From the NCBI GenBank assembly GCA_963924885.1, contig CAWUUY010000369.1:1-37480 (forward strand): a DNA stretch of 37,480 bases, written 5' to 3'. The DNA is from an uncultured Burkholderiales bacterium. GTDB lineage: Bacteria > Pseudomonadota > Gammaproteobacteria > Burkholderiales > SG8-41. Shown here one piece after another: positions 2,673 through 26,465 of this stretch. How positions within the stretch are numbered: the stretch's first letter is position 1; every line of letters begins with the position of its first letter. A model generated the notes under the pieces. The model was not told the origin of the DNA, made no database searches, and saw nothing but the letters and a program-made list of their open reading frames with translations. The translations under genes and the position numbers were made by a program.

Positions 2673-3356
2673 ATGCGTAGTGGTGGTGTGGTCGAAGTTG
2701 CAAATCGTTGGTTGTCGCAGATACTGGTAAGTGTGCTGGCGGTGCTGACTATGGCGATGGCCAGCCTGACATCCGCGCAACTCGTACCAGGAAAAGATTA
2801 TCTGGTTATCAAGCCGCCACAGCCCACGCCCGCGGGAAAGAACATCGAGGTGATTGATTTCTTTTGGTACGGCTGCGGCGGCTGCAACCAGTTGCAACCC
2901 ACGCTGTACGCGTGGCTGAAACGCAAACCCGCCGATGTCACGTTTCGCCGTCAGCCCGCTGCCTTTCAGGATAACTGGGTGCAACTGGCGCGCACCTATT
3001 ACGCCTTCGAAGCGCTCGACATGACCGACAAGCTGCATGGTGAAGTGTTCGACGCCATCCACAAAACCAAGGCGCTGAATCCGGCCACGCTGTCCAAAAG
3101 CCCGGATGCGCTGTTTGACTGGGTGGCGACCAAAGGCGTCAACCGGCAAAAATTCGTCGATGCCTACAAATCGTTTGGCGTGGCCAACCGCTCACAACGT
3201 ACCATTGACGTTACCGCGGCGTACAACATATCCAGCACGCCCACACTGGTGATAGATGGGCAGTATCTGGTAACGCCCTCGGGCGGCTACGACGTGTTTT
3301 TCAGGAATGTGGATCAATTGATCGAGTTGGCGCGAAAAAATCGCGGAGGGAAATAA
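2673..3356 (+). CDS. dsbA: thiol:disulfide interchange protein DsbA family (active site C-G-G-C)
   Basis: ATG at 2673 preceded by GGGAG. It has a signal peptide, the motif VIDFFWYGCGGC, and the cis-Pro loop STPTLVIDG. The upstream part of track ORF 2514-3356 overlaps the SPOR gene and is not coding. Confidence 0.85.
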   Translation: MRSGGVVEVANRWLSQILVSVLAVLTMAMASLTSAQLVPGKDYLVIKPPQPTPAGKNIEVIDFFWYGCGGCNQLQPTLYAWLKRKPADVTFRRQPAAFQDNWVQLARTYYAFEALDMTDKLHGEVFDAIHKTKALNPATLSKSPDALFDWVATKGVNRQKFVDAYKSFGVANRSQRTIDVTAAYNISSTPTLVIDGQYLVTPSGGYDVFFRNVDQLIELARKNRGGK

Positions 3357-4022
3357 ATGATGTCTAGTCTGAAACGCTTATTCCGGCTGTTCGCGGCCAG
3401 CATGACACTGGCGGCCATTGTTGCCGGAGCCGCCGGCGCGCAGACCCAGATACAAGGCCGGCCTCTCGAACAAACCTATCGTGTGATCCTGCCGCAGAAA
3501 GTCGACACCGGAGATCACATCGAGATCATCGATTTCTTTTGGTATGGATGACCCTTTTGTTATCAGTTTCTGCCCGTGCTGGCAGAATGGGAAAAAAGCA
3601 AACCGGCGGATGTCGTAGTACGCCGCATACCCGCGGTCTTGCGCGAGGGCTGGCTGGCCGATGCGCACCTTTACTACACGCTGGAACTGTTGGGAGAGGC
3701 GGATCGCCTGCATGCCCAGGTTTTCGAGAGCGTGCATAAAGGCCAGTTGCAAACCAGCAATACCGAAGCTGTTGCCGCATGGGCGGTGAAGAACGGCATC
3801 GATGCGCAAAAATGGCAGGCGGCCTATACGAATACCGAGGTTCGCGACCGTGTGGTTCATGCCATGAATCTCGCGCGCAATTACGATGTGCGCGGCACGC
3901 CCGCGGTGATCGTGGATGGCCTTTATCAAACCAGCCCCGGCATGGCGGGTAGCATGATGAGTATTCCCGCCGTGATGGATGCTCTGATCAAATTGGCGCG
4001 CGAACAGCGCAAGAAGCTCTAG
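3357..4022 (+). CDS. DsbA/DsbL-like thiol:disulfide oxidoreductase with an in-frame TGA (3549-3551) at the first active-site Cys; candidate selenoprotein, alternatively a nonsense pseudogene
   Basis: Track ORFs 3357-3551 and 3576-4022 share one frame, separated only by the TGA. The read-through protein aligns without gaps to the upstream paralog: IIDFFWYG[TGA]PFCYQFLPVLAEWEKSKPADV versus VIDFFWYGCGGCNQLQPTLYAWLKRKPADV. The signal peptide and the cis-Pro loop RGTPAVIVDG are intact. Confidence 0.6.
3568..3587 (+). promoter_or_regulatory. candidate SECIS-like stem-loop downstream of the in-frame UGA
   Basis: UUCUGCC (3568-3574) pairs perfectly with GGCAGAA (3581-3587). The 6-nt loop is CGUGCU, with GU at 3576-3577. 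The stem starts 16 nt after the UGA. The U-run at 3555-3558 and the A-run at 3592-3597 could extend a lower stem. Confidence 0.4.
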
Positions 4023-4029
4023 TTTCTTC

Positions 4030-4839
4030 TTGCGCGGCAAGGGCGTGCTGTTGCCAGACAGCGAAAAACCATTGCGTGTTTTCATCACCGGCGCCAGCAG
4101 CGGCATAGGGGCCGCGTTGGCGCAACGTTATGTCGCGCGCGGCGCCGTGCTCGGTCTGGTTGCCCGGCGCGCCGAGGCGCTGGCGACCATTACATCAAAA
4201 ATATCAATAAAAACATATAGTTACCTTGCCGACGTGCGCGATGCGTCACAGATGGCCAGCGCCGCGCAGGCGTTTCTGACCGACGCAGGCTGCCCCGACA
4301 TCGTGATTGCCAACGCCGGCGTGAGCGTGGGCACGTTGACCGAACATGCCGAAGACGCGGAAACCTTTCGGGCGGTGCTGGAAACCAATCTGTTAGGCGC
4401 CTTGCATACCTTCCAGCCGTTTGTGCCGGCGATGAAAGCGGCGGGGCGGGGCAAGTTGGCGGGCATTGCCAGTGTCGCCGGTTATCGCGGCTTGCCCGGC
4501 GCGGGCGCTTACTCGGCATCCAAGGCCGGACTGATCGCGTATCTGGAAAGTTTGCGCATCGAATTACAGCCGGCGGGTATCCGCGTCATCACCATTTGTC
4601 CCGGCTATATCGCCACGCCCATGACCGCGCATAATCCCTACGCGATGCCGTTCATGATAAGTGTGGAAGCCGCTGCGCAAAAAATCGAACGCGTCATCGC
4701 GGCAGATAAAACCTACGCCGTGATGCCATGGCAAATGGCGATCATCGCGCGCATCATGCGCGTGCTGCCGAACGGGCTGTTTGATCGCTTCGCGCGGGGT
4801 CGTCCACGCAAACAGCGCGCCGGGATTACTCGACGGTAA
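4030..4839 (+). CDS. short-chain dehydrogenase/reductase (SDR) family oxidoreductase
   Basis: It has the Rossmann motif [18 protein letters not shown] (IANAG), and the catalytic YSASK. The start is uncertain: TTG 4030, GTG 4045, or TTG 4051/4072. The 3' end overlaps the convergent glmS by 14 nt. Confidence 0.85.
4197..4224 (+). repeat. AT-rich 28-nt element, copy A (inside the SDR CDS, sense)
   Basis: AAAAATATCAATAAAAACATATAGTTAC. It matches copy B at 25/28 and copy C at 24/28. It is an A/T island in GC-rich coding DNA. Confidence 0.8.
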
Positions 4840-6667
4840 CGGACTTGGCGAGATTGCGCGGCTTATCCACATCGGTGCCGCGCAGCAGCGCCACGTGATA
4901 CGCCAGCAGTTGCAGCGGAATCACATGCAGTATCGGCGACAGCGGCCCCGCGTGATCCATCAATGCGATGGTATGCAGCCGATCGGCCTTGGTGATGTGT
5001 GCATCACGATCGGCAAACACATAAAGCTCGCCGCCTCGCGCGCGCACTTCCTGCAAGTTGGATTTGAGTTTTTCCAGCAACTGATCGTTGGGCGCGACGG
5101 TAACCACCGGCATGCCCGCATCCACCAGCGCCAGCGGGCCGTGCTTCAACTCGCCCGCCGCGTAGGCCTCGGCGTGGATGTACGAGATTTCCTTGAGCTT
5201 AAGCGCGCCTTCCATGGCAATCGGGAAATGCACGCCGCGCCCGAGGAACAAGGCATGCTGTTTGTTCTTGAAGCGTTTGGCCCATGCCGCAACCTGCGGC
5301 TCGACCGACAGCACGGATTCCATCGCGCGCGGCAAATGCCGCAAGGCTTTCAGAAAGTCACCTTCTTGCTTTGCGCTCAAGCGCTTACGCTGTTTCGCAA
5401 GCACCAGCGTGAGCACGAACAGCGCGGCCAACTGCGTGGTGAATGCCTTGGTGGACGCCACGCCGATTTCCGGCCCGGCACGGGTAAGGAAACGCAACTT
5501 TGATTGGCGGATCAGCGCGGATTCCGGCACATTGCAGATGGTCAGCGTGTCCTTTAACCCCAGCGCTTGCGCGTGCTTTAACGCGGCCAGCGTGTCGGCG
5601 GTTTCACCGGATTGCGAGATGGTGATGACCAGCGTTTTCGGAGTGGCCACCGGGTCGCGGTAACGATATTCGCTGGCGATTTCGACCGTGGTGGGGATGC
5701 CGGCGATGGATTCCAGCCAATAGCGTGCGACCATTCCGGCGTGGTAGCTGGTACCACAAGCCAGTATCAGTATATTATTGTTTTTATTGAATATTTTGTC
5801 GGCGCCAGTACCAAACAAATTAGGCTGAAGTAAGCGGGCACTCATCACCATTTCGAGCGTATTGGCGATGGCGCCCGGCTGCTCGAAAATCTCTTTTTGC
5901 ATGTAGTGCTGGTAGCGCCCGAGGTCCGCGGCGTCGGCGCTCAGTTTGCTGCGCGTGATCGAACGGCGCGCGGTTTTGCCGTTGGCGTCACGGATCGAGA
6001 CGCCATCGGGGCGAACCTCCACCACGTCGCCTTCTTCGAGGTAGACCATGTCGCGGGTGCGCGCGAGCAGCGCGCTCGCATCGGAGGCCAGAAAATTTTC
6101 GTTTTTGCCACGACCTACCAACAGCGGCGAACCCTTGCGCGCCCCCACCACCACGTGCGGCTCGCGATTAGAAATAAAACCCACGGCGTAAGCCCCTTCC
6201 CACGCGCGGCTGGCTTTTTGCACGGCATCGAAAAGCGACAAGCCCGTGGCCACCAGCGAATGCACATGATGCACCATCACCTCGCTGTCGGTTTCCGAGG
6301 TAAAGCGGTAGCCCTTGGCTTTTATGCGCGCACGCAACGCCTCGTGATTTTCGACGATGCCGTTATGCACGATGCCGATTTCAAGGCCGTTGCGTTGCGA
6401 GAAATGCGGATGGGCGTTGGCTTCGGACGGCACGCCGTGCGTGGCCCAGCGCGTGTGCGCAAGGCCGGTGGTAGCGGTCACGCGGATTTTGCGCGCCAGT
6501 TGTTCCAAGTGCGCCACGCGTCCCGTGGAGCGCAGGCGGGAGAGTTTGCCGTCCGCAACGAAGGCAATACCCGTGGAGTCGTAGCCGCGGTATTCGAGCT
6601 TGAGGATGCCGCCGATCAACAGATCAATGATATTGCGTGATGACGCCGCGCCGACGATGCCGCACAT
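4826..6667 (-). CDS. glmS: glutamine--fructose-6-phosphate aminotransferase (isomerizing)
   Basis: 613 aa with the N-terminal MCGIVG nucleophile, SIS-domain motifs ([20 protein letters not shown]), and the C-terminal [15 protein letters not shown]. Confidence 0.97.
5770..5797 (-). repeat. AT-rich 28-nt element, copy H (inside the glmS CDS, sense)
   Basis: The minus strand reads AAAATATTCAATAAAAACAATAATATAC. It shares the CAATAAAAACA core and the AAAATAT flank with copies A and B, with a 1-nt indel. Confidence 0.7.
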
Positions 6668-8034: not shown

Positions 8035-9549
8035 TTATCTCATAGCCACTGTGTAACGGTTCGTCATATAGAATGCAAGCGCTTGTTTTTGCGTGGCATT
8101 GATATGCAGCCCGGCCTTGGTACGGCGCCACAGAATGTCATCTGCGGTGCGCGCCCATTCATGCCGCACGAAGTAATCGACTTCGCGCGCATACAGTGTG
8201 CCGCCGAAGTCCTCGCCCAGATCCGCAATGTTTTTTGCGTCGGTCAGCACGTCGCGGGCAGCCGCGCCATGCCTGCGCGCGAGGGTTTGCAACAGCGTGC
8301 CGGGCAGCGCGGGGTAATCCCGTTGCAACATCTGCATGAAGGCTTCGAGCGTTGCAACACCCAATTCGCCGCCGGGCAACAGGGCTTGCTCGGTCCAGGG
8401 GGCTTTCATTCGGGGAAACCAGTCGGCGAGTTTTTCGAGTGCATGCTCGGCGAGCCTGCGGTAGGTCGTGATTTTTCCGCCGAAGACGGAAAGGACGGGC
8501 GCGGTGTCGGCATCACCGTCCACTCGCAAGGTGTAGTCGCGAGTGATTTTGGATACGTTTTTTGCGCCGTCGTCGAACAGCGGGCGGATGCCGCAGTAGC
8601 TCCACACGACATCGGCGGCTGTGGTTGCGCGCGAAAAATATCGATTCGTGGCGCGGCACAGGTAGTCAATTTCTTCAGCGCTGGCCATACAGGCTTCGGG
8701 GTCGCCGGTATGTTCAACATCGGTGGTGCCAATGATCGTATAGCGGCCTTCATACGGATACACAAAAACCACGCGCCGGTCGTCGTTTTGCAGAATGAAA
8801 GCGTGTTCCCCTTCGTAAAGACGCGGGACGACGATGTGACTACCCTTGACCAGCTTGAGTCCAAAGGGTGTCGCTAAGTGTATGTTTTTATCGATAAATT
8901 GTTTTGCCCATGGGCCTGTGACATTGGCCAGCGCGCGCGCGTTGAATTCGATGGGGGCGGCATTTTCCGGCTGCAAGATCACGCGCCACAGCGCGCCGTC
9001 GCGGCGTGCGGATACGAAGGGGGTGCGCGTCAATATCGTCGCGCCGAGAGCAACGGCGGCGCGCGCGTTGGCGATCACCAGCCGCGCATCGTCCACCCAG
9101 CAGTCGGAATAGATAAATCCTTTGGTCAAACCGGGCTTGAGGCCGTGGTTAAACGGCGCGGCGCCGAGATCCAGCCCGTGCGAGCCGGGCAGGGTGTCGC
9201 GGCGCGCGAGGTAGTCATATAGAAACAATCCCGCGCGGATCATCCACGCCGGTCGCAGTGCCGGCACGTGCGGCATGACAAAGCGCATCGGATGCACGAT
9301 ATGCGGCGCGGCGCGCAGCAGTATCTCGCGCTCGGCGAGCGATTCTCGCACCAGACGAAATTCATACTGTTCGAGATAACGCAGGCCGCCATGCACCAGC
9401 TTGCTGCTGGCCGACGAGGTGTGTTGCGCGAGATCGTGTTGTTCGGCGAGCAACACTTTCAATCCGCGTCCAGCGGCGTCGCGCGCGATACCCGCGCCGT
9501 TGATGCCGCCGCCGACGACTAACAGATCTACCTTGGGTAGACTTTCCAT
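8035..9549 (-). CDS. glpD: FAD-dependent glycerol-3-phosphate dehydrogenase
   Basis: 504 aa. It has the FAD-binding motif [22 protein letters not shown], followed by [23 protein letters not shown], which is typical of GlpD. Confidence 0.9.
8874..8901 (-). repeat. AT-rich 28-nt element, copy I (inside the glpD CDS, sense)
   Basis: The minus strand reads CAATTTATCGATAAAAACATACACTTAG, matching copy A at 21/28. Confidence 0.7.
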
Positions 9550-25109: not shown

Positions 25110-26465
25110 ATGAACACATTTTGGAGCCTTTGTCTTTCGCAGTTTGAGAAAGATTTGACGGCCCAACAGTTCATCACCTGGATAAAACCGTTAACCGTGA
25201 CGCAATCCGGCAGCGCTGGCTACACCGTGATCGCGCCCAACCGCTTTGTGCAGCAATGGGTGCGCGACAAATTTCTGCCGCGCATACAATCGCTCGCGCA
25301 GGAACATCACGACACCCTTGTAACCATCGAGTTGGTGTTGGCCGACAAAGAGCCGGTTCGTCACCCTTCCTCTACCCTGGCAGCAAGTAGTTTGCCCGTG
25401 GCGGACGATAAGGTCAGAGCGCCGTCTGTTTCGCTGCCGAGAGACCTATCGCGGCTCAATCCGGCCTTTACCTTTGACACGTTTGTCACCGGCAAAGCCA
25501 ACGAACTCGCCCGCGCCGCCGCGACGCAAGTCGCTGACAAGGCGGGTACCGCCTACAACCCCTTGTTTATCTACGGCGGTGTCGGCCTGGGCAAGACCCA
25601 CCTTGCGCACGCCATCGGCAATTGTTTCCGCTCGCATATGCCTAAAGGCAAGGTACGCTACATCCACGCCGAACAATATGTATCGGACGTGGTGCGCGCC
25701 TATCAGCACAAGGCGTTTGACGATTTCAAACGCTACTACCACTCCCTGGACGTGCTGCTGATCGACGACATACAATTTTTCAATGGCAAGAGTCGTACGC
25801 AGGAAGAGTTTTTCTATGCATTCAACGCACTCATCGAGTCACATAAACAGGTAGTGATCACTTGCGATACCTATCCCAAGGAAATCGCGGGAATTGAAAA
25901 TCGACTGATTTCCCGCTTCGGTTGGGGACTCACCGTAGCGGTCGAACCACCCGAACTGGAAATGCGGGTCGCCATACTGATCAAGAAAGCCGCGCAAGAA
26001 AGCATTACGCTGTCGGAAGATGTCGCGTTTTTCCTTGCACGGCACATACAATCAAACGTTCGCGAACTTGAAGGCGGTTTGAAGCGCATCCTGGCATACG
26101 CCCGATTCACCGGACACGATATTTCTGTAGATCTATGCCGCGAGGCATTACGTGACCTGCTAGCAGTCCAAAATCGACAGATTTCCATCGAAAATATTCA
26201 GAAGACCGTCGCCGATTACTACAAGATCAAGGTTTCGGAGATGTACTCCAAGAAACGCACACGCAATGTTGCCCGACCCAGGCAGGTTGCCATGGCGCTG
26301 GCAAAAGAACTGACTCAACTTAGTCTCCCGGACATAGGCGACGCATTTGGCGGGCGCGACCACACCACCGTCCTTCACGCTTGTCGCAAGATCACGGATC
26401 TTAAAACCGTCAATGGCGACATAAGCCGTGATATCACCTCGCTGCTGAAAGTTCTCCGCTGTTAA
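25110..26465 (+). CDS. dnaA: chromosomal replication initiator protein DnaA
   Basis: 451 aa with the N-terminal [25 protein letters not shown], the AAA+ Walker [11 protein letters not shown], and the C-terminal DNA-binding signature [11 protein letters not shown]. Confidence 0.98.

Follow-up and report, generated by a model that had tools for sequence, protein, structure and literature searches.

DsbA-like proteins in which selenocysteine (Sec, U) takes the place of the first cysteine of the redox motif (UxxC; Pfam family PF01323) go back, as predictions, to the Sargasso Sea survey of 2005, which assigned them to COG2761 (Zhang and Gladyshev; PMC1088965). Further members were recorded in a few Deltaproteobacteria and Clostridia (PMC1794560), the Global Ocean Sampling survey of 2008 listed the selenoprotein families 'DsbA 1-3' (PMC2398784), and by 2016 DsbA-like selenoproteins were counted in 41 organisms (PMC5029168). 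A 2026 review lists 'DsbA-like protein form 1, PF01323, UxxC' and calls the functions uncharacterised (PMC13188914). No Sec-containing DsbA is known to have been characterised biochemically. For the Betaproteobacteria, FdhA was the sole selenoprotein family listed in 2006 (PMC1794560). Here we analyse a stretch of 37,480 nucleotides (nt) from an uncultured Burkholderiales bacterium (contig CAWUUY010000369.1), referred to as the window, which carries two dsbA paralogs in tandem, dsbA1 and dsbA2. The second of these is interrupted by a TGA at the codon for its nucleophilic cysteine, and comparison with its relatives leads us to conclude that dsbA2 is very probably a selenoprotein gene. A preliminary description of the window had arrived at the same reading, and had taken DsbA-like selenoproteins to be known from computational surveys only, as the literature bears out (PMC1088965, PMC2398784, PMC5029168, PMC13188914).

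Two open reading frames (ORFs), 3357–3551 (64 codons) and 3576–4022 (148 codons), lie in the same frame, and the TGA at 3549–3551 is the sole break in it; 156 sense codons separate this TGA from the TAG at 4020–4022. When the TGA is read through, the product has 221 residues (...IEIIDFFWYG-U-PFCYQFLPVLAEWEK...). The TGA falls on the first cysteine of the CxxC motif, with FFWYG-TGA-PFC in dsbA2 standing against FFWYG-TGC-GGC in dsbA1 (...IEVIDFFWYG-C-GGC...), and both the second cysteine and the cis-proline loop are intact. In these respects, and in the coordinates of the ORFs, the TGA and the stem, loop and spacing of the hairpin described below, the sequence agrees with the preliminary description. 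Its statement that the two DsbAs align without gaps holds across the active site; downstream of it there are seven gap positions (two small indels), and the identity between dsbA1 and read-through dsbA2 is 34%.

Elsewhere in the window TGA behaves as an ordinary stop, ending four of the 27 genes checked and occurring internally in none of them. The code is therefore standard, and the meaning of the UGA at 3549 depends on its context. Moreover, three of the Sec-type orthologs introduced below (L004, L007 and L020) use TGA as their true stop, so that a single mRNA would contain one UGA read as sense and another read as stop. When the window was scanned for further ORF pairs broken by a TGA, nothing emerged beyond the antisense and inter-gene cases to be expected at 58% GC.

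A protein database search recovered full-length homologs with cysteine (C-P-F/Y-C) together with a set of fragment entries, and there was no full-length U-containing entry among the best 120 matches. Thirteen of these 120 are fragments of 146–149 amino acids (aa), all of which begin with (M/V)LAEWEK or MAEWEK, as does the artificial start in the window. Because the fragments share one start, gene callers must break the gene at one and the same position in every case; dsbA2 is mis-annotated wherever it is found, as an ORF of 60–66 residues followed by a 'DsbA' fragment of 146–149 residues. The DNA behind the fragments has the order argS–SPOR–dsbA1–(60–66-aa ORF)–(147/148-aa ORF) every time, with TGA at the identical codon. 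We also scanned one genome per species in GTDB for the pattern FFWYG-TGA-xx-C-Y, which yielded five more Sec-type loci, all in betaproteobacterial metagenome-assembled genomes (MAGs) that are GTDB species representatives; the other three of the eight matches (L016, L017 and L019) were rejected as chance occurrences with no ORF. A scan of metagenomes added three further Sec-type loci. Altogether, TGA occupies the same codon (FFWYG-TGA-PFCY) in 16 distinct syntenic argS–SPOR–dsbA1–dsbA2 loci from betaproteobacterial MAGs and metagenomes, and TGC or TGT, encoding cysteine, occupies it in 54 of the 70 distinct tandem loci and in all the full-length database homologs examined. One of the GTDB representatives with the argS–SPOR–dsbA1–dsbA2(U) locus, L013 (CAMDDY010000023.1), is titled 'MAG: Bordetella parapertussis'; this organism label looks wrong, as the locus is the same as in MAGs of uncultured Nitrosomonadales and Betaproteobacteria.

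The 15 complete Sec-type genes share 66–99% nt identity (mean 77.5%), and no indel separates them between the mature N-terminus and the C-terminus. The median ratio of non-synonymous to synonymous change (dN/dS) is 0.08 for the 34 codons that precede the TGA and 0.13 for the 155 that follow it, at a proportion of synonymous differences (pS) of about 0.55. The P, F and C codons immediately after the TGA vary synonymously among the Sec forms, which indicates that the stretch following the TGA is translated in this frame. These data also bear on the alternative, raised in the preliminary description, that the TGA is a recent nonsense mutation, marking a pseudogene, or an error of sequencing or assembly. 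The single in-frame stop is itself all that speaks for this explanation. Against it, the same TGA is present in 16 distinct loci that diverge down to 66% nt identity, the codons downstream of it have a dN/dS of about 0.1, and the dsbA2 of the window recurs with no or one mismatch in four independently assembled contigs. These comparisons refute the alternative, and we regard sequencing error, recent nonsense mutation and pseudogene formation as excluded.

A second possibility is that the TGA is a true stop and that the locus encodes a 64-residue peptide and a separate 148-residue protein initiated at the GTG at 3576. Gene callers do annotate two ORFs everywhere, and GTG or ATG stands at the same place in all orthologs. 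Nevertheless, nothing comparable to the GGAGG Shine–Dalgarno sequence of dsbA2 lies upstream of GTG 3576, and the C-terminal piece would possess neither signal peptide nor active site. Moreover, the TGA and position 3576 are separated by eight in-frame codons, which retain PFCY(Q/E)(L/F/I)LP while varying synonymously, and frame and length are kept without indels in the 15 genes. The comparison thus argues strongly against a split gene, and we hold this arrangement to be highly improbable.

If dsbA2 encodes a selenoprotein, its mRNA should carry a selenocysteine insertion sequence (SECIS) close to the UGA. A perfect stem of 7 base pairs (bp; UUCUGCC/GGCAGAA) closing a six-nucleotide loop, CGUGCU, starts 16 nt after the TGA and places G3576 27 nt from the U of UGA. 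Its folding energy is −9.9 kcal/mol in the window and ranges from −9.2 to −9.9 kcal/mol among the Sec forms, with −7.8 kcal/mol in L029, and the hairpin is kept in all Sec forms. The model of the bacterial SECIS (bSECIS) calls for a loop of 3–9 nt, an upper stem of 4–16 bp, G in one of the first two loop positions, 16–37 nt between UGA and loop, and an energy of −7.5 kcal/mol or lower (PMC13188914). The present hairpin lies within every one of these limits, with a loop of 6 nt, a stem of 7 bp, G–U at loop positions 2–3, a spacing of 23 nt and the energy given above. RNAalifold recovers the upper stem from the alignment. A search of Rfam at gathering and permissive thresholds returned nothing relevant, a result that is uninformative if Rfam has no bacterial SECIS family; to our knowledge it holds none.

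Synonymous sites indicate that this hairpin matters. Codons +4 to +10, which encode its 5′ arm and loop, have zero third-position entropy in the 15 Sec-type genes, against a gene mean of 0.79 bits; they form the seven-codon window of lowest entropy in the gene (run-length permutation, p = 1.5e-4), and pS falls fivefold over them, to 0.11 from 0.55 gene-wide. The 3′ arm has two variable third positions (Ala GCA/GCG and Glu GAA/GAG), at which only A or G occurs, each facing a U; 99% of cells in the alignment of 14 sequences are consequently paired, the sole changes being from U-A to U-G.

The relatives with cysteine show what happens to the hairpin when the UGA is absent, and we regard this contrast as decisive. 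In the tree the Sec and Cys forms are interleaved, and in bootstraps made by a fast distance method the Sec forms were monophyletic in none of 200 replicates. P0001, which has Cys, falls inside the Sec forms in 167/200, and one Sec group joins the Cys forms P0008 and P0011, away from the other Sec group, in 187/200. The hairpin is gone in the nested Cys genes, the energy falling away to −2.9 kcal/mol in L105 (the locus of P0001) and −4.1 kcal/mol in L106 (P0016). In L105 the peptide YQLLPVM is identical, but five of its seven codons have been replaced by synonymous ones; no equivalent stem was found in the more distant Cys forms examined. In L105 and L106 traces of the hairpin sequence persist in decayed form (as in TTGCTGCCGGTAATGTCGGAA versus CTTCTGCCCGTGATGGCGGAA), and they look like fossil SECIS elements left after replacement of Sec by Cys. 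The proposal that TGA or Cys and the hairpin should covary among orthologs is therefore upheld, hairpin and constraint both being lost in the nested Cys-type relatives, and the comparison indicates that selection acts on the hairpin and couples it to the UGA. As the two Sec groups have one hairpin sequence in common, the likeliest, and we believe the most economical, history of the clade is that Sec arose once and reverted to Cys several times.

Several observations weigh against our interpretation. No double compensatory base-pair change was seen in the stem when covariation was counted over 14 sequences; the element is too conserved for covariation to be informative, and the analysis of synonymous sites was used in its place. 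The 71-nt region 3540–3610 folds no better than shuffled sequences (z = 0.16), and a hairpin just as good comes after ten of the 1073 TGA trinucleotides that the window contains (0.9%). Considered by itself the hairpin is accordingly only suggestive, and it is the comparative data that make it significant. There are also competing pairings, whose predicted stability equals or exceeds that of the hairpin in several orthologs, the window among them. The first is a long imperfect stem over 3552–3591 (from UGA+1 to about UGA+40), which is favoured in variants with AUG in the loop region; the other pairs UCUGCC (3569–3574) with GGCGGA (3605–3610) and becomes the preferred fold for the window and four orthologs if a stretch of 48 nt is folded. 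Of the predicted folds, the local hairpin agrees most closely with the bSECIS model, and it would sit just outside the stretch covered by a ribosome paused at the UGA. Every Sec-type sequence, moreover, comes from a MAG or metagenome. Finally, a search confined to the window and its flanks found no tRNA and no sel gene in the 37-kb window, and no tRNA, hence no tRNA-Sec, in the ten flanking loci scanned; Pfam annotation of the rest of the window gave housekeeping genes only, with no sel genes and no formate dehydrogenase.

The lack of tRNA and sel genes in this neighbourhood would also suit a third explanation, in which the UGA at 3549 is read by something other than the Sec machinery, for example a near-cognate tRNA-Trp or tRNA-Cys, perhaps stimulated by the hairpin, to give a product with Trp or Cys at this position instead of Sec. 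In every Sec form the UGA is followed by C, and UGA-C is a weak termination context. However, an enzyme with Trp in place of the nucleophile would be inactive, which is at odds with the strong purifying selection on the entire protein, and Cys is more simply encoded by TGC or TGT, as it is in the related lineages. The geometry of the hairpin and the G–U in its loop match the bSECIS model, and Sec decoding is common in Betaproteobacteria (PMC1794560), which we take as background and not as evidence for this particular lineage. We consider read-through by an ordinary tRNA improbable. Insertion of Sec at this codon is supported by conservation of the TGA, by purifying selection on both sides of it and by the suppression of synonymous change over the hairpin.

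If dsbA2 is indeed decoded with Sec, expression can be envisaged as follows. The dsbA1–dsbA2 mRNA would be translated from the ATG at 3357, and at the UGA the hairpin would recruit SelB-GTP-Sec-tRNA(Sec), with the result that selenocysteine is inserted and termination does not occur. The 221-residue precursor would then be exported by the Sec pathway and lose its signal peptide, leaving a mature DsbA-fold oxidoreductase of ∼21 kDa whose U-P-F-C motif would presumably cycle between the selenolate/thiol and the selenenylsulfide. The TAA of dsbA1 (3354–3356) abuts the ATG of dsbA2, and its GGAGG lies within the 3′ end of dsbA1, an arrangement implying that the two genes are co-transcribed and translationally coupled. 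By eye, the N-terminus of dsbA2 has a basic n-region, a hydrophobic core and an A-G-A motif; the N-terminal helix is of low confidence in the model of the Cys homolog P0001.

For profile and structure-database searches of the read-through product, Cys was substituted for the stop. It scores 51.4 bits against the Pfam family DSBA (PF01323; cut-off 25.6), and its best solved relative is the DsbA of Burkholderia pseudomallei (PDB 4k2d; E = 4.5e-34 over residues 45–217); it also matches the classical periplasmic DsbAs of Bordetella and Pseudomonas. U65-P-F-C68 aligns with the CPHC of 4k2d, and T181-P182 with its cis-proline loop. The AlphaFold model of P0001, the closest Cys homolog (79% identical), has a pLDDT of 91.8 and superimposes on the DsbA structures of Burkholderia, Pseudomonas and Bordetella with a TM score of 0.9 and a root-mean-square deviation of 1.6 Å. 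Judged by profile and by this model, the dsbA2 product is a classical DsbA in family and fold. Its scores fall below the cut-offs of the NCBIfam DsbA equivalog models (51 against 279), which indicates that it is not an equivalog of Escherichia coli DsbA.

The dsbA tandem is widespread in Betaproteobacteria, and the redox motifs of the two paralogs were compared over the 70 distinct tandem loci, which are not phylogenetically independent. The unusual C-G-G-C active site of the dsbA1 in the window (about 2873–2884) is shared by eight of the 16 loci with a U-P-F-C dsbA2 (including L001, L003, L004, L008, L011 and L014), and by none of the 54 with a Cys-type dsbA2, in which dsbA1 has CPHC (51 loci), CPYC (two) or CPGC (one). 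This pattern suggests that the two paralogs co-evolve. It is possible, though we put it forward as a tentative proposal that may well prove wrong, that the genes described here constitute a distinct, undescribed subfamily, a classical DsbA oxidase with catalytic selenocysteine that is exported by the Sec pathway in aerobic freshwater and soil Betaproteobacteria. The enzyme may also pair with a remodelled DsbA1, an idea that derives from the occurrence of C-G-G-C DsbA1, within the 70-locus sample, only where DsbA2 has Sec.

What such an enzyme might gain from selenium can be considered from general chemistry. Substitution of Sec for a nucleophilic Cys should lower the redox potential of the active-site bond and speed exchange. 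DsbA2 could then act less as a pure oxidant and more as a catalyst that is faster or resembles an isomerase. Natural U-P-F-C/C-P-F-C pairs, about 80% identical, are available in the clade for direct comparison, and it would provide a clean example of SECIS decay after replacement of Sec by Cys. If the distinct subfamily, the pairing with DsbA1 and the reversions all hold, these loci would be a natural setting in which to find out how a disulfide oxidase benefits from selenium. A more immediate consequence concerns annotation, since the splitting of the gene leaves the proteomes of these lineages without an intact periplasmic oxidoreductase and hides a requirement for selenium.

The features of the locus are collected in Table 1.

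Table 1. Positions of dsbA1, dsbA2 and the elements within them, in window coordinates
Feature	Position	Strand	Basis and remarks
dsbA1, upstream tandem paralog with C-G-G-C active site	2673–3356	+	ORF list; Pfam DSBA 29 bits (cut-off 25.6)
GGAGG Shine–Dalgarno sequence of dsbA2	3345–3349	+	Within the 3′ end of dsbA1; read from the sequence
dsbA2, complete DsbA-family oxidoreductase gene of 221 codons	3357–4022	+	Proposed Sec (U) at codon 65; stop TAG 4020–4022
Predicted Sec-type (export) signal peptide	3357–3440	+	MMSSLKRLFRLFAASMTLAAIVAGAAGA, then QT; no twin-arginine motif, no lipobox; by inspection
In-frame TGA, proposed Sec codon	3549–3551	+	At the nucleophilic Cys of CxxC; next base C (UGA-C)
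U-P-F-C redox motif	3549–3560	+	Translation; synonymous P, F and C codon changes among Sec forms
Possible extended SECIS, lower stem	3555–3563/3587–3595 (3555–3595)	+	RNAalifold consensus; weaker, with no double compensatory changes and with competing folds
Synonymously invariant codons +4 to +10	3561–3581	+	TAT CAG TTT CTG CCC GTG CTG in the window; third codon CTT in most relatives
SECIS-like upper hairpin	3568–3587	+	Stem 3568–3574/3581–3587, perfect 7 bp; loop 3575–3580
cis-Proline loop G-T-P (RGTPAVIVDG)	3894–3902	+	Lines up with the cis-Pro loop in the alignment to B. pseudomallei DsbA; T and P invariant in homolog alignments

The window as a whole is a housekeeping stretch around oriC of a betaproteobacterium with 58% GC, and contains argS, a SPOR-domain gene, dsbA1, dsbA2, an SDR gene, glmS/U, glpD, the atp operon, parAB, rsmG, mnmG/E, yidC, dnaA, dnaN and gyrB. 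Positions 9000–30245 span the neighbourhood of the replication origin (atp operon, parB/parA, rsmG, mnmG, mnmE, yidC, dnaA at 25110–26465, dnaN and gyrB), with a gap of roughly 1 kb between yidC and dnaA, the expected place of rnpA/rpmH and oriC. Downstream of dsbA2, the SDR gene (4030–4839, + strand) and glmS (4826–6667, − strand) converge, their 3′ ends overlapping by 14 nt (4826–4839).

Set beside the classical DsbAs of B. pseudomallei (4k2d) and Pseudomonas aeruginosa (3h93), the dsbA2 product has the same fold, as modelled for its Cys homolog, the same FFWYG-x-P-x-C-Y context, the cis-proline loop and a predicted signal peptide. It differs from them in the proposed Sec in place of the nucleophilic Cys, in having P-F and not P-H between the redox residues, in an identity of only about 31%, and in being an accessory paralog encoded beside a second dsbA. 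The P-F dipeptide recalls DsbL of uropathogenic E. coli and Salmonella, a CPFC enzyme (about −95 mV) that acts as an oxidase specific for arylsulfate sulfotransferase with DsbI as its partner; the attribution of CPFC to DsbL in the preliminary description was correct (PMC8405906), and both proteins are accessory DsbA paralogs. We nevertheless reject the identification of dsbA2 as a DsbL, as the shared dipeptide is not evidence of orthology. There is no DsbL chain among the solved structures that match the product at E ≤ 1e-5, and neither dsbI nor assT lies near dsbA2, whose neighbours are argS, the SPOR-domain gene, dsbA1 and the SDR gene.

The hairpin of dsbA2 resembles the SECIS elements of E. 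coli fdhF and fdnG in lying within the coding region 3′ of the UGA, in its small apical loop with G followed by U, and in its consensus spacing. It differs from them in its unrelated sequence, in the lack of a bulged U and in starting 16 nt after the UGA, where the minimal E. coli element starts at about 11 nt; binding of SelB to it is putative.

The closest likeness is to the DsbA-like selenoproteins of the earlier surveys, with which dsbA2 shares membership of PF01323, a UxxC motif with Sec at the first Cys position, the existence of Cys homologs, a hairpin that closely follows the UGA and has G in its apical loop, and the fact of being known from prediction only. Unlike the family of 2005 (COG2761; Deltaproteobacteria and Clostridia), dsbA2 encodes a classical DsbA with a predicted signal peptide and is the second gene of a betaproteobacterial tandem; its comparison with published Sec members (for example AACY01178397 and NIP15863.1) was made by Pfam family and UxxC motif. 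The existence of a DsbA-fold UxxC selenoprotein will not surprise a specialist, such proteins having been catalogued since 2005. We conclude that dsbA2 is a new, hitherto unannotated member of a known, computationally defined family, and not a new kind of system.

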